Source: Reyranellaceae bacterium
Lineage (GTDB): Bacteria; Pseudomonadota; Alphaproteobacteria; Reyranellales; JAQSWP01
DNA length: 48,455 nt
Direction: 5' to 3'
NCBI GenBank assembly: GCA_050185515.1
Contig: JBFWZG010000004.1
Location: 1 to 48,455 of the forward strand
Shown here: positions 1,430 to 33,172 of the stretch, in pieces
How the letters are laid out: each line of letters opens with the position of its first letter
Numbering within the stretch: position 1 is the stretch's first letter
Notes under the pieces: generated by a model
The model's database searches: none
What the model was told of the DNA's origin: nothing
The model's input: only the letters and a program-made list of their open reading frames with translations
Made by a program: the position numbers and the translations under genes

Positions 1430-1448
1430 GCCGTGGTCACTCGCTCCT

Positions 1449-2759: not shown

Positions 2760-2790
2760 CGACTGACTCCGGGCTGGATGCCGACTGGTT

Positions 2791-11262: not shown

Positions 11263-12708
11263 CTAGCCTTCGCCGCGATAGATCGCGACGCTGACCAGCC
11301 ATTTCGGCACCCGCCGGCCGGTCAGGAACTGTTTCGTCGGCGCGTCCTCGTCGTCGCCGAACAGGATCTGCTCGGCAAGGCGATGCTCGCGGGCGATGCC
11401 GCTGGTCGCCGCCTCGAAACCCGGACGTTGCGTGAACGTGCCGTCGTCGATCACCACCACCACCGGAGCGCTGCGCCGGGCGCAGTTGTCGGGCAAGGAG
11501 GCGGCGATGACGCAGTATCCGAGTTCGCGCAGTTGCAGCGACAGCGACGGCTCGGAGGATACCACCAGGCTGTCGGCGACCGGCGCATGCTGGCGGATGG
11601 CGGCGAGGATCTCCTGGTCCGGAATGTAGAGATTGCGCTTGAACGGTCGGTCGTTGCCGGTCAGCAGCCATAGCGCCGTCGCGCTGACGATCAGTCCGAA
11701 TACGGTGGTGGCAACGGCATGTCCGCGCCGCCACGGCAGGCAGGACCCGCCGAGCACCACCAGCGCCAGCAGGAACGGCACGGCGAACAGCAGGGAGCGC
11801 GGCTTGGCGAAACCCGCGAGCGCCAAGGCGGCGCACAGAAAGGCGATGAGCAACGAAACGCTCAACAGGTCGCCGGTCGACGGGCGGCGGAAACCCAGCA
11901 GCGCGCCGAACGCCGCCAGCAGGCAGAAAAGGAAAAATGGCAGGGCAATGAGGCTTTGGGTCAGCCCGAGCCCGTAGCCACCGATCACCCCGATCGCCAT
12001 CGTGCCGACCGATTGCAGAAGATTGGAGTCGAACTGTCCGGGCAGGTTCAGGGCCGACAGGCCGAAAGACAGCAGCGCCGGCGCGGACAGCACTCCCATG
12101 GCGAGCAGGAACGGAATGTCCCAGGCGGCGTCGAACTTGCGGGCGCCGAGATAGCGCCAGCCCAGATAGGCCATGGCCGGAATGCCGGCGAGATAGCTGA
12201 TATTGGCGGCCACGCCGAAGGCGATGGCGGCCGCCATGGTCGGCCGGCCGCGATCGAGGGCGCTGACGATGGCCACCGCCACCGGCAGGACGAGCAGCGG
12301 ATACCAGCGCAATACCGCCCCCATGCCATAGAGCAGCGGAGCGCCGAGGAACAGCGCCAGCGCCAGCACACGGGAGGCAGTGGCATCGTCGGGCAGACGT
12401 CGCCAGACCAGGTCGAGCACCAGGGCGAATCCCGCTGCGGCCATCGCCAGCGACAGGCCGCGCTGCAGCCATAGCGGCAGGCCGAGATCGGCCAGGGCGC
12501 GAAACCAGAGAAACGACAGCGGCGGGTGGACGTCCTGTCCGCCGATATGGAACCGCAGCAGGTCGACGTAGCCCCAGCCGTCGATCGCCGCCAGGGTCAG
12601 CGCCTCGTCGTCGAACACGCGCTGCTCGAACCGGCCGCAGGCGTAGGCGATGGCCAGCGCGACCGCGACGAAGCCCAGCAGGCCGATTGCGCCCAGCCCC
12701 TTGTGCAC
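11263..12708 (-). CDS. Polytopic membrane protein, probable GT-C fold glycosyltransferase (PMT/ArnT-like)
   Basis: Start re-called at GTG 12708; first loop FDDE..DVHPPL, RWYPLL, about 10 hydrophobic segments and a soluble C-terminal domain. Confidence 0.6.
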   Translation of the reverse strand: MHKGLGAIGLLGFVAVALAIAYACGRFEQRVFDDEALTLAAIDGWGYVDLLRFHIGGQDVHPPLSFLWFRALADLGLPLWLQRGLSLAMAAAGFALVLDLVWRRLPDDATASRVLALALFLGAPLLYGMGAVLRWYPLLVLPVAVAIVSALDRGRPTMAAAIAFGVAANISYLAGIPAMAYLGWRYLGARKFDAAWDIPFLLAMGVLSAPALLSFGLSALNLPGQFDSNLLQSVGTMAIGVIGGYGLGLTQSLIALPFFLFCLLAAFGALLGFRRPSTGDLLSVSLLIAFLCAALALAGFAKPRSLLFAVPFLLALVVLGGSCLPWRRGHAVATTVFGLIVSATALWLLTGNDRPFKRNLYIPDQEILAAIRQHAPVADSLVVSSEPSLSLQLRELGYCVIAASLPDNCARRSAPVVVVIDDGTFTQRPGFEAATSGIAREHRLAEQILFGDDEDAPTKQFLTGRRVPKWLVSVAIYRGEG

Positions 12709-12776
12709 CCCTGCCCCCGGTGTTTCCCCGGCACAGGATAGGCGGCAGGACGGCGGGACGTAACCCCGCAGATCGA

Positions 12777-13205
12777 TCAGATCAGGCCCAGCCGGCGCAG
12801 TTCGGCGGCCATCTCCGGTGGCGCATCGGCGGAATCGCCGGGGCGGGCATCGGCTGGCGCCCGCGCCGGCTCCAGGTAGCGCCAGCCCTGAAAGGGCTGC
12901 ATGGCGCGCATCGCCGTCGGAACGAGTTCGCGTTCGACGAGGAACACGCAGTATTTGCGGCCCTGTTCGTCGCTCGCCTCGTCGAAACCCACCAGTCTCT
13001 GCCGCGCCCGGATATAGCCCTTGATTACCCAGTAGAGCGATCCGCCCTCCAGCAGCTCCGCCTGGCGCTTGGGCGTCGAACGGGTGAACACGCGATGCGG
13101 CGAGCCGGGCTTCTGCCGCCGCTCCTTGCGGCGCTTCTCCTGAAACCTGGCGATCTCCTCCAGCGAGGAGGCGCCGACGGCAAGCTTGATGAGGTTCAGG
13201 GTCAT
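12777..13205 (-). CDS. DUF1489 family protein
   Basis: MTLNLIKLAVG, TPKRQAELLEGGSLYWVIKG, PFQGWRYL, ELRRLGLI; start at ATG 13205. Confidence 0.85.
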   Translation of the reverse strand: MTLNLIKLAVGASSLEEIARFQEKRRKERRQKPGSPHRVFTRSTPKRQAELLEGGSLYWVIKGYIRARQRLVGFDEASDEQGRKYCVFLVERELVPTAMRAMQPFQGWRYLEPARAPADARPGDSADAPPEMAAELRRLGLI

Positions 13206-13413
13206 GCTTTTGTTTACGACTGCCTGACGCCATTCCGCAACAGGACTGTGGCGGGTTTCCCACAGCAGCCGGCAATTGCAGACCCGACGCATTCCGCACG
13301 TCGGGCCGCCACATATTTTCCGCAAAACGGGGCGCTGAATTGCAGTCACGAAGCAGTGTCCGGCGCGCTAAGATGCGCCCGGCCAACAAGACTGCCGCTC
13401 GGTGGAGACTTCA

Positions 13414-16400
13414 ATGAAGCGCACGACCGTCGTCACCCTGCTGATCGCCGCCGTCATGGCGATCGCAGCCATAGGCTACTTTACTCTGCTGGGGCCGAAT
13501 TCGCCGTTCGACCGCACCGAGCAAAGCGCGTCCGCGCCCCAGACCCCAGGCCCCGCGCCCACAGCGCCGGCCGGCGGCAGCAGCCAGCCCGCCACCGGCG
13601 CGAGCACTGCCGCGACTCCGCCGGCGCCTTCCGCGACGTCCGTCGCGCCGCAAGCGCCGGAATTCGCCTATCGCCGCCTCACCATCGATGGTTCGAAAGA
13701 CCTGATCGAAGCCTGCTTCAGCTTCACCCACGCTCTGAACGACAGCGGCAGCGTGCGCTACGACGACTACGTGAAGATCACGCCGGCGGCCAAGGTCGCC
13801 ATTCGGGTCGCCGGCGACCGTCTCTGCCTCGGCGGTCTGGCTTTCGGTCGGGACTATGACGTCGAGCTTCTCGCCGGACTGCCGGCGGCGGCCGGCGGCA
13901 AGGCTCTGGAACGCGCCGAAAGCGTCAAGGTCGCGATGGGCGAACGGCCCGCCATGGTCGCCTTCAGCGGCTCCGGCCTTATCCTGCCGCGCGAGACCAG
14001 CGTCGGCGTGCCTATCACCACCGTCAATGTCGACACCGTGCGCATCAAGGTGCTGCGCGTTTCCGACCGCATCATGGCGCGTCTGTCCCCGGACGAGTTC
14101 GAGCAGAAGCGCATGCGCCCCTGGCGCGTCCAGGACGTGCTGCAGGATACCGGTTCGCAGGTCTGGGAAGGCACCATGGCAGTCAAGGGCGGCCCCAACG
14201 AGACCGTTGTGACGGCGTTTCCGATCCGCGAGGCGGTCAAGGAATGGAAGCCCGGCGCCTATCTCGTCGTCGCCTGGAACGCCGCCGACGGCAAGATCGA
14301 GGCCACAAACGACTACAGCTCTTTCAACTACAACTACGAGACCGCCTCGCAGTGGGTGATCGATTCCGACATCGGGCTCACTGTCCTGACCGGCACGGAC
14401 GGGCTGCATGTCCTGTCCCGCTCGCTGGCCAGCGCCAAGCCGATGCCCGGCATCACCCTGGCGCTGATCGCCAACAACAACGATGAGCTTGGCAAGGCGA
14501 CCACCGATGCCCAGGGCTATGCCGCCTTTCCGCCCGGCCTGCTGCGCGGCAGCGGCGGCAACGCGCCGGTTGCCGTCATGGCTTACGGCCCGAACGGCAG
14601 CGACTTCAACTATCTCAGCCTCAGCCGCGCCGGTTTCGATCTGTCTGACCGTGGCGTCGAAGGCCGCGCCGCCCCCGGCGCGACCGATGCCTTCGTCTAT
14701 CTCGACCGCGGCATCTATCGCCCGGGCGAGACGGTTCACGTCACGGCGATGCTCCGCGATCGCACCGCCGTTTCCCTTGACGCGCCGCTGACGCTCATCG
14801 TGCGCCGCTCCGATGGCGTCGAGTACCGTCGCACGACGCTCGCCGGCACCGCCGCCGGCACGGTCAGCTTCGGCGTTGACCTCAGCCCCTCGGCGCGCCG
14901 CGGACGGTGGAGCGTCAGCGCCTATGTCGATCCCAAGGCGCAGCCTGTCGGCACCGCCGAATTCAGCGTCGAGGATTTCGTACCGCAGCGGCTCAAGCTC
15001 ACTCTGGCTGCAGATAAGGAAAAGCCGCTGAAGATCGGCGACGAAGTGTCGATCACGGTGGACAGCCGCTTCCTCTACGGCGCGCCGGCCGCCGAACTCG
15101 AAGGCGAAGCGGAGATGCGCATCGTGGCCGATCCGCTGGCCTTTCCGAAGCTGCCGGGATTCCGCTTCGGCCTGACCGGAGAGAAGGTCAAGGAAACCAT
15201 CGTGCCGCTGGCCATCGTCAAGACGGACGCCCAGGGCAAGACTACGGCTACCGGCAGGATCGAGAAGATCGAGCCTCTGACCACGCCTTTGAAGGCAAAT
15301 ATCTCGGTCTCGATCTTCGAGCCGGGCGGCCGCGCCACCCGCGACGAGATCTCGCTGCCGGTGCGGCCGCGCGACAGCTACGTCGGCCTGCGGCCGCGCT
15401 TCGAGGGCTATGTGCAGGAAGGCACGCCGGCCGAGGTCGAAATCGCGCTGGTCGACGCCAGCGGCGGACGGCTGGCGCGGCCCGGCATGAAATGGGAGCT
15501 GGTGCGCGAGCATCGGAACTACCAGTGGTATCGCACTGGCAATGCCTGGCGCTGGGAAGTCTACAGCCGCGACATTCCCGTAACCAGCGGCACGGTCGAC
15601 GTCGAGGCCGACAAACTCGCCGTCGTCAGCCAGACCCAGTCCTGGGGCCGCTACCGGCTGACGGTGACCGATCCGACGACGGGTGCCGCTTCCAGCATCA
15701 CCTACTATTCCGGCTGGGCCTCCTCGCAGGTCGCCGAAACCCCGGACTTCGTCAAGGTCACGTCCGACAAGCAGACCTACGCCAAGGGCGAGACCGCGCG
15801 CGTGCGCATCGAGGCGCCTTTCGCGGGTGAAGCGACGATCGTGATCGCCGGCGATCGCGTTTTCGAGCGCAAGCTCGTTGCCGTCGCCGCCGAGGGCACG
15901 ACGGTGGAAATCCCCGTCTCCGCCGATTGGGGCAGCGGCGCCTACGCTCTGGTCAGCGCCTTCCGGCCGCTGGCGCAGAAGAACGATCGTGCCCCGGTGC
16001 GCGCCATGGGTCTCGTCTGGCTGGGCATCGACGTCAGCGATCGCAAGCTGTCAGTCGACATCGGCACGCCCGAAAAGATCCTGCCGCGGCAGAAGATCGA
16101 GGTGCCGATCAAGGTCGCACAGGCCGGGCCCGAGGCCTTCGTCACTCTGGCTGCGGTCGACGAAGGCATTTTGCAGCTCACCAAGTTCCAGTCGCCCGAT
16201 CCATCGCAGCACTATTTCGGCAAGCGTCGCCTGACGCTTGGCATCCGCGACGACTACGGCCGCCTGCTCGACGGCTCGGCCGACGTCGTCGGCCAGATCC
16301 GCACCGGCGGCGACAGTGCGGCGGGCCGCGGCCTGGAGGTCGTGCCGACGCGGACCGTGGCGCTATACTCGGGCATCGTCAAACTCGACGCCGAGGGCAA

Positions 16401-18378
16401 GGCCAGCATTCCACTCGACATTCCCGACTTCACCGGCGAATTGCGGCTGATGGCGGTCGCGTTCGACCGGGCGCGGGTCGGTCAGGCCAACAAGCCGCTG
16501 ACCGTGCGCGACGCGCTGGTGAGCGACGTCACCCTGCCCCGCTTCCTGGCTCCCGGCGACGAAAGCCGGATCAGCCTGCTGCTGCACAATGTCGAGGCCT
16601 CACCTGGTGCCTACCAGGTATCGCTGACGGCGAGCGGCGCGGTAAGCCTCCCCGCCGTCAACCAGTCGATCGACATGCCAGCGGGCAAGCGCCAGATTCT
16701 CGGCTGGCCTGTGAAGGCAGAGCAGGTCGGGATCGGCAAGTTCGATCTGAAGGTCACCGGGCCCAACGGATTCGAGGTGGCGCGCGACTGGCAGATCCAG
16801 GTCCGCCCGGCGCAGGCGCCCCAGACGGTGGAGCTGGTCTCGGCGGTCAAGCCCGGCGAGAGCTTCACCGTCGACGCCGCCTCGCTCGAGACATTCGTTC
16901 CCGGCAGCGCCACCGTCTCGGTCAGCATGGCCAGCGTGCGCGGCTTCGACGTCGCCGGCCTGCTGACCGCGCTGGACAAGTATCCGTTCGGCTGCCTCGA
17001 GCAGACCACCAGCCGGGCCCTGCCGCTACTTTACTTCGGGGAACTGGCAGCGGTCAGCGGCATCCAGACCGACAAGTCTCTGCCGGCGCGCATCCAGGAG
17101 GCCGCGTCGCGCATTCTCGACATGCAGCGCCCCGATGGCGGTTTCGGCATGTGGGGGCCCGGTCCCTACGCCGCCGATCCCTGGCTGCAGATCTTCGCGC
17201 TGGATTTCCTCATCCAGGCCAAGGCCAAGGACTTCGCCGTGCCGGACGCCGCGATCATGCGCGGTCTGAACTGGGTGCGCAGCACCCTGTCGGAACTGGC
17301 GCCCGAGGCGCGCGCCTACGGCTTCTACGTGCTGGCGCGCGCGGGCCAGGCCGATGTCGGACAGTTGCGCTATTTCCAGGACACGGATCTGCGCAACATC
17401 CGCACCGGGCTGGGTCGCGGCCATCTGGCGGCGGCGCTGGCGCTGACCGGCGAAAAGGCGCGCGCGCTCTCCGCCTTCCAGCAATCGCGCCAGGCGGTCG
17501 GCTCGGTCATTCGCGGCGACTACTACGGCACGGCCCTGCGCGACGCGGCGGGGCTTACGGCCGTGGCAGCCTTGGCCGGCCAGACAGACATGCTGCCGGC
17601 GCTGACCGACAGGCTGCGCCGCTTCGACAAGGCGAGCATCGAGAACACCACGACCCAGGAGAAGGCTTGGATGCTGCTGGCGGCCCACGCCATGACCCAG
17701 AGCACGACGCCGCTGACCCTTGAAGTCAACGGCGATGCCGTGAAGCCCAAGCGCGAGCCGGCCATGTTCTATCCCGACGCCGTCAAGGTCGCCGCCAACC
17801 CGATGGCGATCCGCAACACCACCGACCGCGAGATCTGGGGCACGCTCTCGGTGCGCGGCGTTCCCAAGGCGATGCAGCCGGCCGTCTCGCGCGGCCTGCG
17901 GGTCGACCGGGTGTTCCGCAAGCTTGACGGCTCGGCGGCCGACCTTGCGAAGGTGGTGCAGAACGACCGGCTGATGGTCGTGCTGACCGGCCGCGCGCTC
18001 GACAAGAGCTACCACGAGGTTGCCCTTCTCGACCTGCTGCCGGCCGGCTGGGAGATCGAAGCGGTCATTCCCTACGTGCAGGACGGCGAGCAGGCCTATT
18101 CCTGGCTGCCGAAGATCAGTTTCACCCGCACCCGCGAGGCGCGCGACGATCGCTTCTTCGCCAGCTTCACCTTCGGCAAGCCGACCTATTTCGGCTCCTA
18201 TCGCGGCAACTACTATTACGAGGAAGAGGAAACCGCCGAGTTCGCGCTCGCCTATGTGGTGCGCGCGGTGACGCCCGGTACCTACGTTCTGCCCCCGGCG
18301 CAGATCGAGGACATGTACCGGCCGGGCGTGATCGGCCGCACCAATGGCGGCACGGTCACCGTGCTGCCGCGGCCCTAG
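13414..18378 (+). CDS. yfhM: Bacterial alpha-2-macroglobulin (YfhM-like)
   Basis: About 1654 aa; DRGIYRPGETV, AAVDEGILQLT, thioester motif YPFGCLEQ, EDMYRP; directly upstream of pbpC; GGAGA RBS. Confidence 0.95.
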   Translation: MKRTTVVTLLIAAVMAIAAIGYFTLLGPNSPFDRTEQSASAPQTPGPAPTAPAGGSSQPATGASTAATPPAPSATSVAPQAPEFAYRRLTIDGSKDLIEACFSFTHALNDSGSVRYDDYVKITPAAKVAIRVAGDRLCLGGLAFGRDYDVELLAGLPAAAGGKALERAESVKVAMGERPAMVAFSGSGLILPRETSVGVPITTVNVDTVRIKVLRVSDRIMARLSPDEFEQKRMRPWRVQDVLQDTGSQVWEGTMAVKGGPNETVVTAFPIREAVKEWKPGAYLVVAWNAADGKIEATNDYSSFNYNYETASQWVIDSDIGLTVLTGTDGLHVLSRSLASAKPMPGITLALIANNNDELGKATTDAQGYAAFPPGLLRGSGGNAPVAVMAYGPNGSDFNYLSLSRAGFDLSDRGVEGRAAPGATDAFVYLDRGIYRPGETVHVTAMLRDRTAVSLDAPLTLIVRRSDGVEYRRTTLAGTAAGTVSFGVDLSPSARRGRWSVSAYVDPKAQPVGTAEFSVEDFVPQRLKLTLAADKEKPLKIGDEVSITVDSRFLYGAPAAELEGEAEMRIVADPLAFPKLPGFRFGLTGEKVKETIVPLAIVKTDAQGKTTATGRIEKIEPLTTPLKANISVSIFEPGGRATRDEISLPVRPRDSYVGLRPRFEGYVQEGTPAEVEIALVDASGGRLARPGMKWELVREHRNYQWYRTGNAWRWEVYSRDIPVTSGTVDVEADKLAVVSQTQSWGRYRLTVTDPTTGAASSITYYSGWASSQVAETPDFVKVTSDKQTYAKGETARVRIEAPFAGEATIVIAGDRVFERKLVAVAAEGTTVEIPVSADWGSGAYALVSAFRPLAQKNDRAPVRAMGLVWLGIDVSDRKLSVDIGTPEKILPRQKIEVPIKVAQAGPEAFVTLAAVDEGILQLTKFQSPDPSQHYFGKRRLTLGIRDDYGRLLDGSADVVGQIRTGGDSAAGRGLEVVPTRTVALYSGIVKLDAEGKASIPLDIPDFTGELRLMAVAFDRARVGQANKPLTVRDALVSDVTLPRFLAPGDESRISLLLHNVEASPGAYQVSLTASGAVSLPAVNQSIDMPAGKRQILGWPVKAEQVGIGKFDLKVTGPNGFEVARDWQIQVRPAQAPQTVELVSAVKPGESFTVDAASLETFVPGSATVSVSMASVRGFDVAGLLTALDKYPFGCLEQTTSRALPLLYFGELAAVSGIQTDKSLPARIQEAASRILDMQRPDGGFGMWGPGPYAADPWLQIFALDFLIQAKAKDFAVPDAAIMRGLNWVRSTLSELAPEARAYGFYVLARAGQADVGQLRYFQDTDLRNIRTGLGRGHLAAALALTGEKARALSAFQQSRQAVGSVIRGDYYGTALRDAAGLTAVAALAGQTDMLPALTDRLRRFDKASIENTTTQEKAWMLLAAHAMTQSTTPLTLEVNGDAVKPKREPAMFYPDAVKVAANPMAIRNTTDREIWGTLSVRGVPKAMQPAVSRGLRVDRVFRKLDGSAADLAKVVQNDRLMVVLTGRALDKSYHEVALLDLLPAGWEIEAVIPYVQDGEQAYSWLPKISFTRTREARDDRFFASFTFGKPTYFGSYRGNYYYEEEETAEFALAYVVRAVTPGTYVLPPAQIEDMYRPGVIGRTNGGTVTVLPRP

Positions 18379-18395
18379 GAGAGAGCAAGACCTCG

Positions 18396-20492
18396 ATGCG
18401 CCGCTGGCTTCTCGCAGGCATTGTGCTGGCGGCGTCCGCCCTGGCCGGCGGCGCCGTGCTTGACCGGCTCTATCCGCCCGACCTGTCGCGCTTCCACGAC
18501 AGGTCGACGCTCGTGGTCGATGCCGACGGCAGGATCCTGCGCGCCTTCACCTCGAGCGACGATCGCTGGCGGCTGCTGGCCGGCCCGCAGGACGTCGATC
18601 CGCTGTTCCTCAAGCTGTTGCTGGCCTACGAGGATCGCCGCTTCCGCTGGCATCCTGGTGTCGATCCTCTCTCTGTGCTGCGCGCCATGGGGCAATTCAT
18701 TGCACATGGCGAGATCGTTTCCGGCGCCTCGACCCTGACGATGCAGACGGCCCGCCTGCTCGAGCCGCATTCGCGCGACCTGACCGGCAAGGCGCTGGAA
18801 GCGCTGCGGGCGCTGCAGCTCGAACTGCACTACAGCAAGGACGAAATCCTCACCCTCTACCTCACCCTGGCCCCCTATGGCGGCAATCTCGAGGGCGTGC
18901 GCGCCGCCTCGCTGGCCTATTTCGGCAAGGAGCCGCGAAGCCTCGCACCTGCCGAGGCAGCACTTCTGGTCGCCCTGCCCCAGTCGCCCGAGCGCCGCCG
19001 CCCCGACCTGCACCCCAAAGCCGCCCGCGCCGCGCGCGACTGGGTGGTCGAGGTCGTGGCCGGCCGTGGCGCCCTGAGCGCCGCGCAGCGCCGCGACGCG
19101 CTCGACCGGCCGGTGCCAAATACCCGCGATTCCATGCCTTTTCTGGCGCCGCACCTGAGTTTGGCGCTGGCGAGCGAGGCGCGGGCGGGTAGCACAGTTC
19201 GGACGTTCGTGCAGGGCGGGCTGCAGCGTGGACTGGAGCGTTTAGCCCTTGAATCGGCACGCAATTTCGCCGATGGCGCGGATGTGGCGATGATCGTGGT
19301 CGACAACCGCGACAGGCGCGTCATCGGCTATGTCGGCAGCGCCGATTTCTTTGCAAAATCAGGCCAGAACGACCTGGTCCGGGCCCGCCGATCGCCCGGT
19401 TCGACGCTCAAGCCGTTCGCCTACGCCATGGCCTTCGACGATGGCTTGTTGCACCCCGAATCCCTCATAGACGATGCTCCCTACCGCTTCGGCGACTATG
19501 CGCCGCGCAACTTCGATCGCGACTTCCAGGGCACCATCACCGCCCGTTCCGCGCTGCAGCAATCGCTCAACGTGCCGGCGGTGGCGGTGGTCAACCGCAT
19601 CGGTCCCGAGCGCTTCGCCGCCGGGCTGCAGCAGGCCGGCGCCGAGCTGGCCTATCCCAAGGACGCGACCGGCGCCGGCTCGCTGGCCATCGTGCTGGGC
19701 GGTGCTGGCATTTCGCTGCTCGACCTGACCATGCTCTATGTCGGGCTGGCCGATGGCGGCTCGATGCGCCGGCTGGCGCTGCACGAGAGCGACGGCGCCG
19801 ACAAGGAGCCGCCGCGCCGGCTGGTGGGCGAACGGGCGGCCTGGTATGTCGGCGACATCCTGGTGGGCAGCACGCCGCCCGACAGCTACGCCTCGACTGC
19901 CACCCCCGGCAGCAGCCGGCGCATCGCCTTCAAGACCGGCACCTCGTTCGGGTTCCGCGATGCCTGGGCGGTCGGCTATAGCGGCCGCTACACGGTCGGC
20001 GTCTGGACCGGGCATGCCGATGCGACCCCGCGGCCGGGCCAGTTCGGCCGCAACACAGCCGCCCCGATCATGCTGCGCGGCTTCGACCTGCTGCCGCCCG
20101 AGCCGGCCGCGCCGGCGCGCCGTCCGGGCGACGTACTGAGCGTCACCGGCGCGGGCGATCTGCCGCCCAGCCTGCAGGTCTTCGACCCCAGCGCGCCCCA
20201 GCTCGCCATCGGCAGCACCGCCCGCACGCGCGTGCCGGCGCCGCGCATCGTGTTTCCGCCGCAGGGCGCGCTGATCGAGGTGAGCCGCGCCGATCAGGCG
20301 CTGCAGCCGCTGGTACTGAAGGCCGAAGGCGGCCAGGGACCGCTGCGCTGGGTGGTGAACGACCGGCCAATCCCGGCAACGGCGGCGACGACGCTGTGGC
20401 AGCCCGACGGGGCTGGCTTCACCCGCATCGCCGTGGTCGACGCCAGCGGTCGCAGCAGCGTGGTCGAAGTCCGGGTGCAGATCGCCGAGTGA
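18396..20492 (+). CDS. pbpC: Penicillin-binding protein 1C
   Basis: Transglycosylase EDRRF and GASTLTMQ; transpeptidase STLK, SLN, KTGT; C-terminal beta domain; paired with A2M. Confidence 0.95.
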   Translation: MRRWLLAGIVLAASALAGGAVLDRLYPPDLSRFHDRSTLVVDADGRILRAFTSSDDRWRLLAGPQDVDPLFLKLLLAYEDRRFRWHPGVDPLSVLRAMGQFIAHGEIVSGASTLTMQTARLLEPHSRDLTGKALEALRALQLELHYSKDEILTLYLTLAPYGGNLEGVRAASLAYFGKEPRSLAPAEAALLVALPQSPERRRPDLHPKAARAARDWVVEVVAGRGALSAAQRRDALDRPVPNTRDSMPFLAPHLSLALASEARAGSTVRTFVQGGLQRGLERLALESARNFADGADVAMIVVDNRDRRVIGYVGSADFFAKSGQNDLVRARRSPGSTLKPFAYAMAFDDGLLHPESLIDDAPYRFGDYAPRNFDRDFQGTITARSALQQSLNVPAVAVVNRIGPERFAAGLQQAGAELAYPKDATGAGSLAIVLGGAGISLLDLTMLYVGLADGGSMRRLALHESDGADKEPPRRLVGERAAWYVGDILVGSTPPDSYASTATPGSSRRIAFKTGTSFGFRDAWAVGYSGRYTVGVWTGHADATPRPGQFGRNTAAPIMLRGFDLLPPEPAAPARRPGDVLSVTGAGDLPPSLQVFDPSAPQLAIGSTARTRVPAPRIVFPPQGALIEVSRADQALQPLVLKAEGGQGPLRWVVNDRPIPATAATTLWQPDGAGFTRIAVVDASGRSSVVEVRVQIAE

Positions 20493-26014: not shown

Positions 26015-26443
26015 TCAGCCGGCGACGATATAGCGGCGCAGGTCTTCGGCCTCGTGACGCACCTCGTCGATCAGCGCCTTGACCACGTCGCCGATCGAAA
26101 CCACGCCGACCAACCGGCCCCGCTCGACCACGGGCAAATGACGGATGCGCCGCTCGGTCATCACCGCCATGACCGATTCGACCGTGTTGTCGGGCGCGCA
26201 GACCACGACCGACTTGGTCATGATATCGCAGACGCGGTCGGCTAGGACGGCGCCGCCGCGCACCGCCACCCCGCGCGCGATGTCGCGTTCGGAGATGATG
26301 CCAAGCACGCGATCGCCGGCAAGCACCAGAACAGCGCCGATGCCGTGATGGGTCATGGTGCGGGCGGCGTCCTCCACGGTCATGTCCGGGGTGATGCCGA
26401 CGACGTCGATTTCCTTGGCGCTGAGAATTTCCGACACAAGCAT
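26015..26443 (-). CDS. CBS domain-pair protein
   Basis: Start at ATG 26443 with GAGGAGG RBS; GIISERDIAR, MTERRIRHLPV, GVVSIGDVVK. Confidence 0.92.
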   Translation of the reverse strand: MLVSEILSAKEIDVVGITPDMTVEDAARTMTHHGIGAVLVLAGDRVLGIISERDIARGVAVRGGAVLADRVCDIMTKSVVVCAPDNTVESVMAVMTERRIRHLPVVERGRLVGVVSIGDVVKALIDEVRHEAEDLRRYIVAG

Positions 26444-26694
26444 GGGCTTCCTCCTCTTCGCTTCGGAGGGCGGCCGGAACACCGCGTCGCTTTCGCGTCC
26501 AAATCGCCCGGCTCGGGCCGGCGCCTGTTCGAACGCCGGCATCGCTGCCGACGGCGCGGGGCCAGACGGCTCCGCAACAGAAACGAACGCTCAGGCGATA
26601 ACTGTGTTCCTCCCCGCCCCGGCAGGCAAGCCATTCGCCTGTGGAGTATGCCGATGGACCGATGCTGCAGCGCGACATTGGGCGAGGCACCCTG

Positions 26695-26710
26695 TGTGAA
26701 ATGGATCACA
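26695..26710. promoter_or_regulatory. CRP-family binding site (TGTGA-N6-TCACA), box 1
   Basis: TGTGA-AATGGA-TCACA, perfect consensus, in the AT-richer intergenic region between the divergent CBS and beta-barrel genes. Confidence 0.65.
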
Positions 26711-26849
26711 GTCGAGACCGTCCAGTTATCGTATGGATTGATAAATGTCTGGTTCAAATGTAATTTTGACGATCCACGGTCCGTGGCGCGACCGGCGCGC
26801 CGGGCCGACCGCAGCAAAGTGTCCTATCGGGACGGAGGCGGGGACGGAA

Positions 26850-28082
26850 GTGGCCGGTCAGGGGGTACGAGCTTTGTTCAAGTCCAGGAATTCGCTGCGG
26901 GCGGGCGTGCCCGCCAGGCGGGCAGCCGCATGGGCCGGCTTCGGGGCGGCAGTCGCCGCGGCAATCGGTATCGCAGGAACCCATCCGGCAGCGGCGCAGC
27001 AAAGCGTGGACCTGCAGGATCTGTTCCGCCAGGTGCTGGTCAATCCAACCGACACGGGCGCCAACATGCGCTACGCCAAGGAAGCCGAGCGGCGCGGCGA
27101 ACTGCGCAAGGCGTTGTCGGCCTACGAGCGCATCGTGCTCAACGAGCCGAACAATCGCGAGGCGCGCGGCGAGTACGAACGCATCAAGGCGCTGCTCGAG
27201 CCGGCGCAGACCCGCTTCCAGTTCGGCTTCGGCGGCCAGTTCGAAACCAACACCGATCTCGAGGACGGTAACGGCCGCGGCGATTTCGCGGGCATCGTTA
27301 CCTTCCGCGTCGACGACGACCGGCGCCTGTTCGGCTCGACGCTGTGGCGCTCGTCGGCGCAGCTCTATGCCGACGCGCATGTGCGCAGCAGTTCCGCCGA
27401 TTTCGTCTACGGCAGCGCCAGCACCGGTCCGATATTCCTGGTCGGCAACGGCTGGCGCTTCCATCCCTTCGTCACCGCCGAAAGCGGTCTGGCCGACTAC
27501 GACTTCCTGTTCTGGTCGGGCGGCATCGGCGGCACGCTGGAAACGCGCGGCTCGGACCCGCTGCGCAGCGTCACGGCCTCTGTGTCATACGCGGATTTCG
27601 CCTCCGGCGACGGCGACGGGCCGTTCACGCCCGACAACGGACGCGACGCCGTGGTGGCAGGGCTGTCGGTGCGGCTGGGCTGGGACAACGTCTTCGCCAA
27701 GACGGATGCCATCGAGCTGCGGCCGCAGATCGTCTACAACGCCGCCGACGACAGCGAATACACGTTCTGGCAGGGCGGCGCGACGCTGTCCTACGCCGCC
27801 AGCCTGTTCACCTTCGCCGGCGGCGTCGGCAACGTCTTCCTCAGCCCCGAGGTGACGGTGCAGTACCGCAACTACAAAGGCGCCGAACAGGGCCGCAGCA
27901 ACGACCGCAAGGACTTCCGCGTTTCGCCGTCGCTGCGCCTGATCGCCATGTACGACAACTACACGGCCGTGCTCGGCTACGTCTACGACCGCAACTTCTC
28001 GAACTACGACAACGAGAACGGCCTCAACGGCCGCAACTACGAGAACCATCGCGTCGGCCTCAACTTCTTCGTGGATTTCTAA
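26850..28082 (+). CDS. Outer-membrane protein with N-terminal TPR and C-terminal beta-barrel (Slam/DUF560-like architecture)
   Basis: Signal peptide ending AAA-QQ; TPR-like helices (LVNPTD..YAKEAERRGELRKALSAYERIVLNEPNN..AR); amphipathic beta-strands; C-terminal VGLNFFVDF Bam-type motif. Start uncertain (26745, GTG 26850 or TTG 26874). Confidence 0.72.
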   Translation: MAGQGVRALFKSRNSLRAGVPARRAAAWAGFGAAVAAAIGIAGTHPAAAQQSVDLQDLFRQVLVNPTDTGANMRYAKEAERRGELRKALSAYERIVLNEPNNREARGEYERIKALLEPAQTRFQFGFGGQFETNTDLEDGNGRGDFAGIVTFRVDDDRRLFGSTLWRSSAQLYADAHVRSSSADFVYGSASTGPIFLVGNGWRFHPFVTAESGLADYDFLFWSGGIGGTLETRGSDPLRSVTASVSYADFASGDGDGPFTPDNGRDAVVAGLSVRLGWDNVFAKTDAIELRPQIVYNAADDSEYTFWQGGATLSYAASLFTFAGGVGNVFLSPEVTVQYRNYKGAEQGRSNDRKDFRVSPSLRLIAMYDNYTAVLGYVYDRNFSNYDNENGLNGRNYENHRVGLNFFVDF

Positions 28083-28858
28083 TGCGCACCATCATTCTCG
28101 CCACCGTCGCCGCCGCCGCCATCGCGGCCGTCGCGACCATTCCGTCGGCCCGGATCGCGGCCCAGACGGCGGCCCAGACGGCGGCGCCCGATGTCGGCGT
28201 CGCCGCCACCGTGATCAATCGCGTCGAGGGCACCGTCGGGCAGCAGACCGCCGCCAAGAAGACCGGCGACAAGGTGTTCCAGAACGAGTTGATCCGCACC
28301 GGCACGGAGAGCAAGGGCCAGCTGCTGTTCCGCGACGAGACCAGCCTGACGATCGGGCCTGAGTCCGAGGTAAAGCTCGACCAGTTCGTCTACAACCCGC
28401 AGGGCAGTTCGTCGGTGACGCTTAACGCCACCAAGGGCGTGTTCCGATTCATCTCGGGCAGCCTTCCCAGCCAGGCCTACGAGATCAAGACGCCGGCGGC
28501 GACCATCGGCGTGCGCGGCACGATCATCAATATCCTGCTGCTGCTCGACGGCACGGAGGTGTTCCAGAACGGCGAAGGCAGCTTCGTGGCGCAGACGCTG
28601 CGCGGCAACTTCACCGTCAACCGCCCGGGCCAGGTGCTGGTGATCCGCCCCGGCGGCGAACCGCAGATCAACGGCAAGCTGGCGCCCTGGCAGCAGGCGC
28701 TGCTGGCGCCGATCCTCGATCCCGACAAGCGCTCGGCGACGGTGCCCGACTTCTTCCAGGAAGACCGGGTGCGCAAGCTGCGCAACATCCTGCGCGGGCG
28801 GAGCGGCGGCTATTCCGGCTACGACGACTACCAGCCGTGCTACGAGTGCGAATACTAG
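28082..28858 (+). CDS. Exported FecR-domain protein (paralogue 1)
   Basis: ATG overlaps the barrel stop (TAATG); signal peptide; GDKVFQNELIRTG..LLFRDETSLTIGPES..LDQFVYNP..GVFRFISG..TPAATIGVRGT. Confidence 0.82.
   Translation: MRTIILATVAAAAIAAVATIPSARIAAQTAAQTAAPDVGVAATVINRVEGTVGQQTAAKKTGDKVFQNELIRTGTESKGQLLFRDETSLTIGPESEVKLDQFVYNPQGSSSVTLNATKGVFRFISGSLPSQAYEIKTPAATIGVRGTIINILLLLDGTEVFQNGEGSFVAQTLRGNFTVNRPGQVLVIRPGGEPQINGKLAPWQQALLAPILDPDKRSATVPDFFQEDRVRKLRNILRGRSGGYSGYDDYQPCYECEY
28157..28185 (+). repeat. 12-bp in-frame tandem repeat (gcggcccagacg x2.4) encoding AAQT-AAQT
   Basis: Direct inspection; lies at the predicted signal-peptide cleavage region of FecR paralogue 1. Confidence 0.7.
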
Positions 28859-29013
28859 AGCAAATCAGGTCTTGACGGAATCGCTAGCGATTCCGTCAAG
28901 ACCTGTGAATTTGCTCTAGATGTTTGGAATGGAGCGGATTCACAGGATTGGAGGCCTGACCTTCCGGACGGGCGGCTCGCAGGAGCCGCCCGTTTGCGTT
29001 TGTGAAGCCGTTC
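28855..29013. repeat. Composite palindromic intergenic element (REP/MITE-like, CTAG-bounded first arm)
   Basis: Perfect 40-bp palindrome 28866-28905 inside ctagagcaaat/atttgctctag arms (28855-28919); second imperfect pair gagcggattcaca (28932-28944)/tgtgaagccgttc (29001-29013) enclosing an 11-bp GC hairpin. Confidence 0.75.
28968..29001 (+). terminator. Possible rho-independent terminator after FecR paralogue 1
   Basis: acgggcggctc-gcag-gagccgcccgt followed by an interrupted T tract (ttgcgttt). Confidence 0.45.
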
Positions 29014-29016
29014 ACA
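29001..29016. promoter_or_regulatory. CRP-family binding site (TGTGA-N6-TCACA), box 2
   Basis: TGTGA-AGCCGT-TCACA, perfect consensus, ending 76 nt before the ATG of FecR paralogue 2. Confidence 0.6.
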
Positions 29017-29092
29017 GTGGGGCCCGGCGCCACTGGAACGCGGGGCGGCCGCGCCCCACCTACCAAGCGCCCCCTCGTCATGGGAGATCGCC

Positions 29093-29821
29093 ATGTCCAG
29101 GTCGTTCGTCGTCGTCACCGTCCTCGCCGCGGTTCTGGCGCTGGCCGCCCAGCCGGCGCCGGCGCCGGCGCAGCCTGCCGCCAATATCGGCGTCGCCGCC
29201 ACCGTGGTCGACCGCATGGAAGGCAGCGCCGGCGGCCAGCGCGTCATCGGCCAGGGCGACAAGGTCTACAAGGACGAGGTCGTGCAGACCGGCGCGCTGG
29301 GCAAGGGCCAGCTGCTGTTCCTCGACGAGACGACGCTGACCGTGGGGCCCAACTCGCGCGTCACGCTCGACCGCTTCGTCTACGATCCCGCCCGCGGCGC
29401 CGGCACGGTGACCATGACGGCGGTGCGCGGCGTGTTCCGCTTCGTCAGCGGCAGCCTGCCCAGCCAGGCCTACGAGATCAGGACGCCGGCCGGCTCGATC
29501 GGCGTGCGCGGCACGATCTTCGAGCTGATCGTCGACCTCGACGACACGGTGACGGTGCGGCTGCTCGAGGGCGGGACCGTGTTCACGACGCTGTCGCGCC
29601 AGCAGGCGGCGCTTACCCGCCCGGGCCAGGTGCTGACCGTGCGGCCGAACAATGGCGGCCTGTCGATCGCCGCCGGCCTGACCGAGCGGCAGACGGCGCT
29701 GCTGGCGCCGATCGTCGATCTCGGCGTCGGCACGCAGACGCCGGGCCAGGACCGGCAGAAGGAACTGCGCGACCAGCTGCGCGGCGGCAGTGGTGGCGGC
29801 GGCAAGCCGCCACAGGACTAG
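29093..29821 (+). CDS. Exported FecR-domain protein (paralogue 2)
   Basis: 242 aa; GGGAGA RBS; signal peptide; GDKVYKDEVVQTG..LLFLDETTLTVGPNS..LDRFVYDP..TPAGSIGVRGT. Confidence 0.85.
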   Translation: MSRSFVVVTVLAAVLALAAQPAPAPAQPAANIGVAATVVDRMEGSAGGQRVIGQGDKVYKDEVVQTGALGKGQLLFLDETTLTVGPNSRVTLDRFVYDPARGAGTVTMTAVRGVFRFVSGSLPSQAYEIRTPAGSIGVRGTIFELIVDLDDTVTVRLLEGGTVFTTLSRQQAALTRPGQVLTVRPNNGGLSIAAGLTERQTALLAPIVDLGVGTQTPGQDRQKELRDQLRGGSGGGGKPPQD

Positions 29822-29840
29822 CCCGGCGAAGGATCCGCGC

Positions 29841-31217
29841 TCAGCGCGCCGGCTTGTAGGCCTCGGCGGGCAGCCAGAGCACGAGATCGGGGATCAGGAT
29901 CGTGATCGTCAGGCCGATGAGCTGCAGCACCACGAACATGGCGATGCCGCGATAGATGTGGACCGTGGTGATCGAGGCCGGCGCGACGGCCTTCAGATAG
30001 AACAGGGCGAATCCCACCGGCGGCGTCAGGAACGAGGTCTGCAGGCAGACCGCGACCAGGATGGCGAACCACACCGGATCGAAGTCCAGCGTCGGGATGA
30101 CCGGCGCCATCAGCGGCAGGATGATCAGCACGATCTCGACCCAGTCGAGAAAGAAGCCGAGCAAGAAAATCACGCCCAGCAGCACGATCAGGATGCCGTA
30201 GCGGTCGAACGGCAGGCCGGTGATGAGGTCGTGGATGACGTCGTCGCCGCCCAGTCCGCGCAAGACGACCGCAAAGGCAGTGGCGCCGATGAAGGCTGCG
30301 AAGATGAAGGCGGTCGTGCTGCCGGTCGCCGTCAGCACTTCCTTCAGGGTCCGGTAGTTGAGCTTGCGGAAGGCGATGGCGAGCAGGGTCGCGCCCATCG
30401 CCCCGACGCCGGAAGCCTCGGTCGGCGAGGCGATGCCGAAGAAGATCGAGCCGAGGACGGCGAAGATCAGGAACACCGGCGGCACAAGCGCCTTGAGCAG
30501 AAGCAGCCAGAGATTGCCCTGCCCTTCCACCATGGCTACCCGGCGCTCCATCGACATCGGCGGCGCCAGTTCGGGGCGCAGGGCCGAGGTGCCGATGACA
30601 TACACGAGATAGAGCATGCCCAGCAGCAGGCCGGGCGACAGCGCCCCGAGGAACAGGTCGCCGACCGACAGATTGAGCTGATCGCCCATGACGATCAGCA
30701 TGATGCTGGGCGGGATCAGAATGCCGAGCGTACCGGACGCGGCGATGACGCCGACCGAAAGCTCCTTCTGGTACTTTTCCTCCAGCATGGTCGGCAGCGC
30801 CAGCGTGGTCAGCAGCACGACCGAGGCGCCGATAATGCCGGTCGAGGCCGCCAGCACGATGCCGATCAACGTGACGGAGATCGCCAGTCCTCCCGGCACC
30901 CGCGCCAGCACCAGCTGCAGCGCCCGCAGCAGCTTGAGCGCGATGCCGCTGCGATCGAGCATATGCCCCATGAAGACGAACATCGGCAGCGACACGAGGC
31001 CGTAATTGGCCATGACGTTGCCGAAGGTGCGGCTGACGACGTTCCGCATCCAGTTGAAGTTGACGTCGACGAAGATGCCGACCATGTCCGCCAGCGAACC
31101 GAGCAGGGCGAAAAGCACCGCCGTGCCGCCCAGCACGAAGGCGAGCGGATAACCGGTGAACAGCCCGCCGATGAAGAAGGCGAACATGCCGATGACGAAA
31201 ACCAGATTCCAATCCAT
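29841..31217 (-). CDS. dctM: TRAP transporter large permease
   Basis: 458 aa hydrophobic; ASGTLGILIPPS, GIASPTEASGVG, QTSFLTPPVGFALFYLK. Confidence 0.93.
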   Translation of the reverse strand: MDWNLVFVIGMFAFFIGGLFTGYPLAFVLGGTAVLFALLGSLADMVGIFVDVNFNWMRNVVSRTFGNVMANYGLVSLPMFVFMGHMLDRSGIALKLLRALQLVLARVPGGLAISVTLIGIVLAASTGIIGASVVLLTTLALPTMLEEKYQKELSVGVIAASGTLGILIPPSIMLIVMGDQLNLSVGDLFLGALSPGLLLGMLYLVYVIGTSALRPELAPPMSMERRVAMVEGQGNLWLLLLKALVPPVFLIFAVLGSIFFGIASPTEASGVGAMGATLLAIAFRKLNYRTLKEVLTATGSTTAFIFAAFIGATAFAVVLRGLGGDDVIHDLITGLPFDRYGILIVLLGVIFLLGFFLDWVEIVLIILPLMAPVIPTLDFDPVWFAILVAVCLQTSFLTPPVGFALFYLKAVAPASITTVHIYRGIAMFVVLQLIGLTITILIPDLVLWLPAEAYKPAR

Positions 31218-31226
31218 GCTTCCGCC

Positions 31227-31748
31227 TCAGTCCCGCCTGTAGCCGAGCAGGAACAGCGCATTCTGGATGGCCACGGAGACGCCCTGGGCCGTTAGCATCA
31301 GCAGCCCGATCGTCAGGAATCCCTTGATGACGTAGCGGGCCGGCAGACCGCCGGGCATTTCAGAACGCTCGTTGAATTCCACCGACTGAATGAAGTACGG
31401 CACCGAGAACCACAGCACCGAAATGGTGAAGGGCAGCAGCAGGACGAGACAGCCGACCAGTTCGACCCAGGCCTTGCCGCGGGGCGTCAGGTTGGCATGG
31501 AAAATGTCGACGCGAACGTGCTCGTTGCGGCCGTAGGTCCATGCCATGCAGAGCAGGAACCCGATCGAGTAGAGATGCCACTGGATCTCCTCGAACTCGA
31601 TGAAGCCGCGATTGAAGCCGTAACGCGATACCACGTTGACGACAATGACCAGCATCAGGATCGGGTAGATCCAGTTCGAAAAGTCGCCCACCCGGGCATT
31701 GACGGTGTCAATGGCCCGGGCGAAGCGATCCAGTCTGGAAAGCGACAT
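31227..31748 (-). CDS. dctQ: TRAP transporter small permease
   Basis: 173 aa, 4 TM; EEIQWHLY, HVRVDIF; between dctP and dctM. Confidence 0.92.
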   Translation of the reverse strand: MSLSRLDRFARAIDTVNARVGDFSNWIYPILMLVIVVNVVSRYGFNRGFIEFEEIQWHLYSIGFLLCMAWTYGRNEHVRVDIFHANLTPRGKAWVELVGCLVLLLPFTISVLWFSVPYFIQSVEFNERSEMPGGLPARYVIKGFLTIGLLMLTAQGVSVAIQNALFLLGYRRD

Positions 31749-31778
31749 GTCTGCCGCTTCGTCGGATTTACGAGGCCG

Positions 31779-32834
31779 TTAGGGAGTGCCCAGCTTGTTC
31801 CACTCGCGAGCCTTGGCGATATAGGCCTTCATATCCTCCCAGACGCGCTTGAAATCGGCATCCTTGGCGGATTGTTCGGCCATGACCTCGTCGGTGGTCT
31901 TCTGCAGTACGGCCATGACTGCATCCGGGAAGCGGCGGATCTGCACGCCTTCCTTGCGATAGAAGTCCAGCGCCGCCGCCTGCTCGCCGATGCCGCGGGC
32001 GATCTCCCACGCCATGTTGGCCTTGCAGGCACCCTCGAAAATCGCCTTCTGGGCGGGGCTGAGTGCGTCCCACTTGTCCTTTTTCATGAAGAACTCGGCG
32101 GTCGACGCTGGCTGATGCCAGCCCGGGAAGTAGTAGTTCTTGGCGACCTTGTAGAAGCCGAGATTCTTGTCGATCGAGGGCATCGAGAACTCGGTCGCGT
32201 CGATAACGCCCTTCTCGAGGTTGGGGAAAATTTCGCCCGCCGGCACGACGGTGACCGAGGCGCCCAGCTTGGACAGAACCTCGCCGCCCAGGCCGGCATA
32301 GCGGATCTTCAGGCCCTTGAAGTCGTCGGCCGTCTTGATCTCCTTGGCGAACCAGCCGGCCGCTTCCGGACCAATGAAACCGCAAATCATGGCGTGGATG
32401 CCGTGCTTGGCGTAGATCTCAGCGAACAGCTTGTTGCCGTTGCCTTCGAGCACCCACGCCAGGTACTCCTCGGTCGTCGCGCCGAACGGCACCGCCCCGA
32501 ACAGGGTCATCGCCGGGATCTTGCCCATGATGTAGCCCGGCCAGCCGTACGACGCATCAAGCGTGCCGCCCTTGACCGCATCGAACATCTCGAATGTCGG
32601 CACCAGCTTGCCGGCCTCGTAGAAGCGGATCTCGATGCTGCCGCCCGACATCGCCATTACAAGGTCGGAGAAGTGCTTGCTGGCCTCGCCAATCACCGAA
32701 AGGTTGGGGTTGAAAGCGGTCTGCATGGTGATGCGGACCTTCTTGTCCTGCGCCTGGACAGGACCGGCGATCGCGACCGCAAGTGCCGCCGCGGATACGG
32801 CGCCGGCAACGAACTTCATCGTCTTCTTCAGCAT
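31779..32834 (-). CDS. dctP: TRAP substrate-binding protein (TakP-like, keto-acid/monocarboxylate-binding group)
   Basis: Start re-called at ATG 32834 with GGAGG RBS; signal peptide; GWFAKEI, KGLKIRYAGLGG, LEKGVIDATEF, YYFPGWHQP. Confidence 0.9.
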   Translation of the reverse strand: MLKKTMKFVAGAVSAAALAVAIAGPVQAQDKKVRITMQTAFNPNLSVIGEASKHFSDLVMAMSGGSIEIRFYEAGKLVPTFEMFDAVKGGTLDASYGWPGYIMGKIPAMTLFGAVPFGATTEEYLAWVLEGNGNKLFAEIYAKHGIHAMICGFIGPEAAGWFAKEIKTADDFKGLKIRYAGLGGEVLSKLGASVTVVPAGEIFPNLEKGVIDATEFSMPSIDKNLGFYKVAKNYYFPGWHQPASTAEFFMKKDKWDALSPAQKAIFEGACKANMAWEIARGIGEQAAALDFYRKEGVQIRRFPDAVMAVLQKTTDEVMAEQSAKDADFKRVWEDMKAYIAKAREWNKLGTP

Positions 32835-33172
32835 GGTTCCTCCCTCTGGAATTCCGGTTTCCGGAATTTTTATATCGACGCTTGAGCGCCGTTCGTTGCG
32901 CAAACTATTGCATCGGCTCGAAGCACGAACAAGTGTTTGTTTGCACAATCGAATTCGGCGGGTTCTGCCCAATCGAAAGGCAGAATCAATGGAATCGCCC
33001 GCCATGGAGCAAGCTTTTCCCGGCCTCCAATGCCGCGCATCGGCATGGCAGCATGGCCGCCGCGTTCCGGCTGACGATACGCCAAACGGGGGTTCCCGAT
33101 AGAAACAGAGGCGGGCCTGCGCTCGAATGCAGCCGCAGGGACGCAAGAAGTGCTTTCGGCGGCCAAAGGCGG

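Follow-up and report, generated by a model that had tools for sequence, protein, structure and literature searches.

Three consecutive genes on the plus strand of a 48,455-nucleotide stretch of Reyranellaceae DNA, referred to here as the window, encode an outer-membrane beta-barrel protein and two exported proteins of the FecR family, FecR1 and FecR2. Profile comparisons place the barrel family in a divergent branch of the Slam/DUF560 superfamily, beyond the reach of the corresponding Pfam model, and the barrel and FecR genes are found side by side in most related loci, many of which also carry a cyclase with a CHASE2 sensor domain. The module probably belongs to a device for signalling at the cell surface and not to an iron or sigma-factor system; more specifically, and with somewhat less than even confidence, we favour a role in envelope sensing that feeds cyclic-nucleotide signalling. 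The window is the whole of one contig (JBFWZG010000004.1, here C4) of a 3.5-Mb, 251-contig metagenome-assembled genome, about 87% complete, and its nearest relatives carry the labels Reyranellaceae, Reyranellales or Rhodospirillaceae.

The barrel protein and the FecR proteins

The genes of the module and the parts of the barrel protein are located as follows in the window.

26874..28082, plus strand: barrel gene (Slam/DUF560 superfamily, divergent), from the open reading frame (ORF), the reading of the start region, relatives and hhalign
26874..26996, plus strand: signal peptide, with predicted AxA cleavage and a mature protein starting from QQ at 26997, read by eye
27012..27197, plus strand: periplasmic arm of four helices, forming two hairpins like tetratricopeptide repeats (TPR), in the AlphaFold2 (AF2) model
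27207..28079, plus strand: 14-strand beta-barrel with C-terminal Phe (AF2 strands, residues 113-402)
28082..28858, plus strand: FecR1, exported FecR-fold protein of 258 aa (Pfam FecR, AF2, Foldseek, TAATG overlap)
29093..29821, plus strand: FecR2, exported FecR-fold paralogue of 242 aa with a Gly-rich tail (Pfam FecR, BLASTP, orthologues)

At its full extent the barrel ORF covers 26745..28082 (plus strand), with its first ATG at 26745. The initial annotation, made on the window from its letters alone, had the barrel gene begin at 26695, a position 50 bp upstream of that ATG and before any start codon. Three starts were considered, ATG 26745, TTG 26874 and GTG 26907, and the true one is likelier to be TTG 26874, preceded 8 nt upstream by AGGGGG, or GTG 26907; this preference rests on the reading of the sequence and on the N-termini of the relatives, whose barrel proteins begin just before the signal peptide. 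The remaining features of the gene structure were as initially described. The barrel protein carries a signal peptide, four helices (residues 48-57, 62-74, 78-91 and 96-109 of the AF2 model) and a barrel that ends in NFFVDF, and its stop codon (TAA, 28080-28082) shares one base with the FecR1 start codon (ATG, 28082-28084) in a TAATG overlap. The AxA-QQ cleavage site is kept in all 23 aligned relatives, A40 and A42 being invariant and Q43 nearly so; the signal peptides of the three proteins are by-eye readings. The AF2 model, built on a 23-sequence alignment, has a mean predicted local distance difference test (pLDDT) score of 80.3, with a disordered signal region, and the only Pfam match of the protein is to TPR_14 at E 0.0036, below the cut-off.

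The strand count and the family of the barrel, which the initial annotation had left to AlphaFold and Foldseek, came out as 14 strands and the DUF560/Slam superfamily. A word-indexed search had returned 23 relatives of the barrel protein, and an exhaustive profile search returned 539 cluster representatives at E <=0.001 (85 at 1e-30), mostly of 350-420 residues; with tblastn no match was obtained among 72,556 plasmid records, pSymB included. The Pfam family SlipAM (PF04575) did not match the barrel protein at E values up to 0.1, there are no SlipAM candidates in the window's genome, with matches in 37 of 301 genomes of the phylum, and one of the 27 members of the barrel family scanned reached E 0.0073, below the cut-off. 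Profiles were then compared by hhalign with a DUF560 alignment built from 20 SlipAM matches in genomes of the phylum. The shallow alignment of 23 barrel sequences gave 96.9% and, taken in parts, 89% for the TPR part and 43% for the barrel alone; because of this last value the profile was rebuilt from 70 diverse members before homology was accepted. With the 70-sequence profile the match to DUF560 was 99.2% (E 1.1e-19) and spanned 343 columns, reaching from the TPR arm to the final Phe, and controls against FadL, another 14-strand barrel family (alignment of 8 sequences, one unpublished genome excluded), gave 1.6% and 1.0%.

The barrel protein is like Slam/DUF560 proteins in its signal peptide, periplasmic TPR arm, 14-strand barrel and C-terminal Phe, and in having an adjoining gene that encodes an exported protein. 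It is unlike them in lacking a Pfam SlipAM match, in the shortness of its TPR arm, with two repeats, and in its neighbours, FecR-fold proteins that lack the beta-barrel found at the C-terminus of known cargo; the barrel family is also linked to CHASE2 cyclases, a link not found in the literature on type 11 secretion systems (T11SS) that was searched. Structural comparison returned generic outer-membrane barrels and no Slam, both with Foldseek (CymA, E 2e-8) and, against solved structures, with VIA-align, where the 14-strand barrels CymA (Z 21.2, 278 aligned, root-mean-square deviation 4.0) and OmpG (Z 18.9) ranked best. The DUF560 profile itself, run against the PDB, matched TPR proteins alone among the 60 best of 84 matches, and since the comparison set holds no solved Slam structure, the ranks of CymA and OmpG say little. 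A polysaccharide export barrel of the BcsC, PelB or AlgE type was considered and rejected, as the matches were just weak TPR or generic barrel ones; it is also disfavoured by the lack of adjoining synthase genes, with the sugar-nucleotide genes of the window (26-3666) more than 20 kb away.

FecR1 and FecR2 match the Pfam FecR family (E 1.3e-11 and 6.7e-12, respectively) and are 51% identical to each other over 205 residues (BLASTP E 1e-60). In both, the first Met and the FecR domain are about 36 residues apart, and the domain directly follows a hydrophobic segment resembling a signal peptide, so that no room is left for a cytoplasmic anti-sigma domain, and the initial description of two exported paralogues devoid of it was borne out. 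The AF2 model of FecR1 (mean pLDDT 82.9) shows a beta-sandwich (residues 37-197, nt 28190-28672) and one helix (202-212), after which comes a tail of low confidence ending in CYECEY; a C-terminal 8-strand barrel like TbpB_B_D, as found in Slam cargo, is absent from it. FecR2 has the same layout by alignment, and its orthologues are present in six related loci (L002-L005, L007 and L008). The best Foldseek matches of FecR1 were 4m0h (E 2.2e-6) and PupR 6ovk (E 4.1e-6), and the four PDB chains matching at E <=0.001 are all periplasmic domains of anti-sigma regulators, 4m0h and 4m0n corresponding to BDI_1681 and 6ovk to the C-terminal, cell-surface signalling domain of PupR. FecR1 ends in a Cys-x-x-Cys tail (PC.EC, window 28838-28855), as do the orthologues closest to it (in L003 and L005), and several distant members of the FecR1/2 family also have Cys-rich C-termini in the family alignment.

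The periplasmic FecR-fold domain is therefore common to FecR1 and the FecR/PupR anti-sigma regulators, whereas FecR1 and FecR2 have neither the cytoplasmic anti-sigma domain nor a membrane anchor beyond the signal peptide, and no gene for an extracytoplasmic function (ECF) sigma factor or a TonB-dependent transducer lies near theirs. Pfam scans of C4 (31 + 9 ORFs) detected no sigma factor, TonB receptor or cyclase, as the initial annotation had read from the window, and none of the matches obtained genome-wide (7 Sigma70_r2, 2 TonB receptor, 21 cyclase and 1 CHASE2) falls on this contig. FecI/FecA-type iron signalling was rejected because the contig holds no sigma factor or TonB receptor.

Related loci and further barrel-FecR pairs

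The neighbourhood of the barrel gene was scanned in one genome per species, which gave 68 loci, 67 of them with a barrel ORF, with the following results.

FecR1/2-like ORF within 600 bp of the barrel: 59 of 67 loci
CHASE2 domain no more than 5 kb from the barrel: 31 of 67 loci; 26 of the 43 loci flanked by 5 kb or more on each side
Cyclase domain no more than 5 kb from the barrel: 33 of 67 loci
CRP-like gene near the barrel: 13 of 67 loci
DUF3307-like small gene near the barrel: 22 of 67 loci

The pairing of barrel and FecR genes is more than chance, and the co-occurrence elsewhere on which the initial proposal depended was thus found. Eight loci have no FecR ORF next to the barrel. In two of them the contig breaks off at the barrel, and in one the barrel is split, with a FecR ORF after it; the five remaining, which are Xanthobacteraceae-like, have the barrel, the DUF3307 gene and the CHASE2 cyclase. 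Pfam searches on example loci confirmed the CHASE2 and Guanylate_cyc domains. In a quick maximum-likelihood tree of 65 barrels, from which three short or split ones were dropped, the CHASE2 label requires 4 changes, compared with 21.9 when shuffled. The association was also visible among 251 sampled alphaproteobacterial genomes: the barrel profile matched 8 of them (two over the TPR part alone) and CHASE2 was present in all 8, compared with 114 of the 251 overall, although related genomes are not independent and kinship inflates such statistics. In the 22 loci that have it (e.g. L021:8183-8572, minus strand), the DUF3307 gene is located between those for the barrel and the CHASE2 cyclase; it is absent from the window, and its product may be a further component of the CHASE2-linked form.

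The genome to which the window belongs has a single CHASE2 protein, a cyclase encoded on another contig, C173, where it is preceded by a FecR protein of its own (FecR3). Barrels were also found on contigs C52 and C128 (562 and 453 residues), each matching the barrel profile end to end and followed by a gene for a large FecR protein. The coordinates of these genes are:

C173, L001: 1710-2480, minus strand: CRP-type regulator gene, divergent from FecR3 and the CHASE2 cyclase
C173, L001: about 2644-3333, plus strand: FecR3, FecR-domain protein
C173, L001: 3227-5398, plus strand: CHASE2 adenylate/guanylate cyclase, the only CHASE2 protein of the genome
C52, L074: 4381-6069 and 1734-4340, minus strand: barrel (hhalign 99.1%) and large FecR protein (868 aa)
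C128, L075: 5290-6651 and 2547-5252, minus strand: barrel (hhalign 99.1%) and large FecR protein (901 aa)

FecR1 is 29% identical to FecR3 over 91 residues (E 1e-7) and closer to the FecR head of the large C52 protein (36% identity, E 7e-21). In both large proteins the C-terminal stretch of about 120 residues gives an end-to-end alignment with Pfam TbpB_B_D, at E values of 0.56 and 0.22 that are far below threshold, and a match to FHBP_C at 0.052, also below threshold; by language-model features, these C-termini resemble the TbpB_B_D/FHBP_C clusters (0.93-0.94). We take their weak resemblance to the TbpB/fHbp-like domain of Slam cargo as a lead and not as a finding; were it true, the barrel family would handle Slam-type cargo, with the FecR head as the constant element. 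On C52, a gene for a 299-aa cyclase is divergent from the barrel-FecR pair.

Exported FecR proteins are paired with CHASE2 in other settings too. Besides the C173 locus, further examples of such pairs were found on plasmids; LysM-FecR proteins are described as adjoining CHASE2 kinases in Burkholderia (PMC5192318), SMc02177 of Sinorhizobium meliloti is a FecR-domain protein and a target of Clr (PMC5498481), and a cluster of a CHASE2 cyclase, a FecR protein of the outer membrane and a TPR protein is already in print for Campylobacterota (PMC9239204), which leaves the claim that the system had not been described valid only in part. FecR1 and FecR2 resemble these small CHASE2-adjacent proteins in being exported and without an anti-sigma part, and the latter are tied to CHASE2 signalling; FecR1 and FecR2 are unlike them in being paired with a barrel and not with a sensor, and they form a subfamily distinct from FecR3.

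A possible role in sensing and its alternatives

Together, the barrel, FecR1 and FecR2 would form one envelope module. In this module the 14-strand barrel of the Slam/DUF560 superfamily would sit in the outer membrane with its short two-TPR arm in the periplasm, and FecR1 would be produced together with it through translational coupling. FecR1 and FecR2, small and predicted to be exported by the Sec pathway, have the fold by which FecR/PupR regulators contact their outer-membrane partner, and they would most likely be the dedicated partners of the barrel, docked on it or partly threaded through it. Barrel and FecR proteins would in this way carry surface information to a cyclic-nucleotide pathway, for which the best candidate output here would be the unlinked CHASE2 adenylate/guanylate cyclase on C173, with its own FecR protein and CRP-type regulator.

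A precedent for such an arrangement is NsrA of S. meliloti, described as an outer-membrane protein needed for signal perception through CyaK (PMC7529298, PMC13001267), a role that rests on genetics (PMC7529298). On pSymB, the NsrA gene has a stop codon that overlaps the start of cyaK, and it encodes a 'FecR domain-containing protein' of 1197 residues; Pfam places its FecR domain at residues 66-160 and its TPR at about 417-531, a layout that fits the barrel portion assigned to residues 600-1200 in the legend of S7 of the published work (PMC7529298). The window's system and NsrA both combine an outer-membrane part with TPR repeats and a FecR domain, and over this last domain the FecR1/2 family matches a profile built from 16 homologues of NsrA (hhalign 95.3%). 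Another shared trait is the genetic link, as in NsrA-CyaK-Clr, with an adenylate cyclase of the CHASE2 type and a regulator of the CRP type, in that 31 of the 67 related loci carry CHASE2. NsrA differs in being one polypeptide, compared with three genes in the window, and in lying directly upstream of a CHASE2 cyclase, whereas no cyclase is adjacent in the window. Fused FecR-barrel forms of the barrel family were not found: a search of longer proteins with FecR1 returned one unrelated protein of 453 aa, and the long barrel-family proteins P0070 and P0064 are devoid of a FecR part.

The sensing role is favoured because barrel and FecR genes are paired in 59 of the 67 loci, with CHASE2 linkage in 31 and CRP-like genes in 13, and because CHASE2 is present in every barrel genome of the sample and the window's own genome has the CRP/FecR3/CHASE2-cyclase locus on C173. 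It is likewise favoured by the match of the FecR1 fold to the PupR signalling domain and the periplasmic domain of BDI_1681, by the precedent of NsrA upstream of cyaK together with the Slam homology, and by the two additional pairs of barrel and large FecR protein on C52 and C128. Several observations weigh against it. In the tree, a long branch separates the window's own clade from the remaining 51 rows, of which 31 are CHASE2-linked, and none of the clade's 14 rows has a CHASE2 neighbour, so that the link to a cyclase is here an extrapolation from the sister clade. The neighbourhood survey for CHASE2 and CRP genes proposed initially was thus positive for the family at large and negative, as far as CHASE2 is concerned, for the lineage at hand. 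Three close relatives (L002, L003 and L006) carry a soluble class III cyclase downstream of the module, and the window lacks its orthologue. The CHASE2 cyclase of the genome already has its own, different FecR protein, FecR3, and the genome has 21 cyclase domains from which the output could come. The C-terminal 640 or so residues of NsrA (about 560-1197) have no detectable similarity to the barrel family, the TPR alone aligning at 48.7%, so that NsrA, the sole experimental precedent, serves as an analogy. Finally, the physical binding of the FecR proteins to the barrel, their location and the output through a cyclase are steps that we infer. In composition, and to judge from these comparisons, the window's system is analogous to NsrA and not a split copy of it; of the split NsrA-like receptor envisaged at the outset, the analogy and the proximity of CHASE2 cyclases in 31 of 67 loci survive, and an equivalence of the barrels, or a CHASE2 link in the clade itself, does not.

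The main rival to the sensing role is plain export of the FecR proteins, which we consider unlikely: a T11SS pair with no tie to cyclic nucleotides, in which the Slam-like translocon would move FecR1 and FecR2 outward as surface or released binding proteins. Such a pair would agree with the homology of the barrel to DUF560 over its whole length, with its translational coupling to FecR1, with the position of the two paralogous barrels before large FecR proteins with weakly TbpB_B_D-like ends, and with the fact that the window's clade is never CHASE2-linked. Slam genes are also described as adjoining their cargo genes (PMC12282271). The same work presents a beta-barrel domain at the C-terminus as the trait that unites predicted cluster 1 T11SS cargo, and FecR1, a beta-sandwich followed by a helix and a disordered tail, has none, FecR2 being alike by alignment; cargo without it is nevertheless conceivable, given that marine cluster 3 T11SS barrels are reported to co-occur rarely with that domain (PMC12282271). 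Export is further disfavoured by the FecR fold, known as a periplasmic contact module, by the presence, in half of the related loci, of CHASE2 cyclases with their periplasmic sensor domain, and by the TbpB-like matches, which are below every threshold. The initial idea of a Slam-like translocon with FecR-domain cargo therefore held for the barrel, through its DUF560 homology, and failed to find in FecR1 the C-terminal barrel of known cargo.

Regulation of a channel, with a 14-strand solute pore gated or plugged from the periplasm by the FecR-fold proteins and maybe tied to the neighbouring catabolic and TRAP (tripartite ATP-independent periplasmic) transport genes, seems improbable. It draws on the structural matches to the channels CymA and OmpG and on the location of the module, which in the 12 clade loci compared with the window occupies one fixed chromosomal site between leucine-catabolism and acyl-CoA genes. 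However, a common fold shows no function, and no solved Slam structure was among the comparisons, so that the ranks of the two channels say little. The synteny is confined to a single clade and could be just inheritance, other clades having the barrel-FecR pair beside CHASE2 cyclases. More improbable still is that the three genes are a remnant, decaying or idle, of a module that once served the soluble class III cyclase of the close relatives. This cyclase directly follows the FecR genes in L003, 10 bp after FecR2, and in L006, and it comes after a TRAP insertion in L002; the window shares with L002 a TRAP transporter (DctPQM, minus strand) after FecR2 (window 29822-33172). The closest paralogue of the cyclase in the window's genome is 43% identical, and the downstream cyclase has been lost altogether from the window. 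Yet the three ORFs are intact, with a G+C content at third codon positions as high as in other genes, their products remain 91-95% identical to those of L002, and L004, L005, L007 and L008, in which no downstream cyclase match was obtained either, keep both FecR genes.

Within the sensing role, a broader proposal is that a deep branch of Slam/T11SS barrels has been put to use for signalling. Instead of a TbpB-like barrel, this branch would have a FecR-fold domain as its constant partner, and this domain would be held or threaded by the barrel so that periplasmic sensors such as CHASE2 cyclases could read surface events. We regard this proposal as doubtful, though a real possibility. If it is correct, FecR1 and FecR2 would be Slam clients of a new kind, whose recognition does not require the canonical C-terminal barrel, and the module could act on a cyclase that is not close by. 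As a sensor domain CHASE2 is widespread, as indicated by its presence in 114 of the 251 sampled alphaproteobacterial genomes, and its ligands are referred to as unknown in the study on Burkholderia (PMC5192318); a conserved barrel with a FecR-fold partner suggests a route for outside signals to reach such sensors. A role of this type for a distant Slam branch was not mentioned in the T11SS literature searched: no paper containing both 'DUF560' and 'FecR' was retrieved, none of the T11SS matches mentions CHASE2, and the main text of the work on T11SS cargo has no mention of FecR, cyclase or TPR, although the co-occurrence tables in its supplements might list FecR families (PMC12282271). The window adds to this that barrel and FecR stay together as a stable unit even where no cyclase is linked to them, and that the FecR partners can be small and devoid of the canonical Slam-cargo domain. 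Cultivable relatives in which the module takes the CHASE2-linked form exist in Kaistia, Prosthecomicrobium (P. pneumaticum), Amorphus (A. coralli) and Rhodobium (R. orientis).

Surroundings of the module

The genes on both sides of the module are on the minus strand, a CBS-pair gene and leucine-catabolism genes upstream, and the TRAP transporter and acyl-CoA genes downstream, so that the three genes form an isolated unit. Between FecR1 and FecR2 there is one further element:

28866..28905, no strand assigned: perfect palindrome of 40 nt with an 18-bp stem (terminator-like scan and sequence)

It sits directly after the FecR1 stop, with imperfect arms that reach about 28857-28921. Its 18-nt half-site has 20 matches in the genome at <=3 mismatches, many of them paired, for which reason we assign the palindrome to a small dispersed family of repeats similar to repetitive extragenic palindromic (REP) elements. 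It may act as a terminator or as an RNA-stabilising hairpin.

The CBS-pair gene (window 26015-26542, minus strand) is divergent from the barrel gene, and this position is kept in the window and in 11 of the 12 compared loci of the clade, the locus L003 beginning too near the barrel; the arrangement could reflect mere synteny or a common promoter region. Farther upstream, a segment of about 1.5 kb (window 11263-12777) contains long ORFs on both strands without a Pfam match. At 13402-20492 on the plus strand there is a gene for a bacterial alpha-2-macroglobulin (1658 aa) and, after it, one for a PBP1C-type penicillin-binding protein, a known periplasmic defence gene pair that looks ordinary here.

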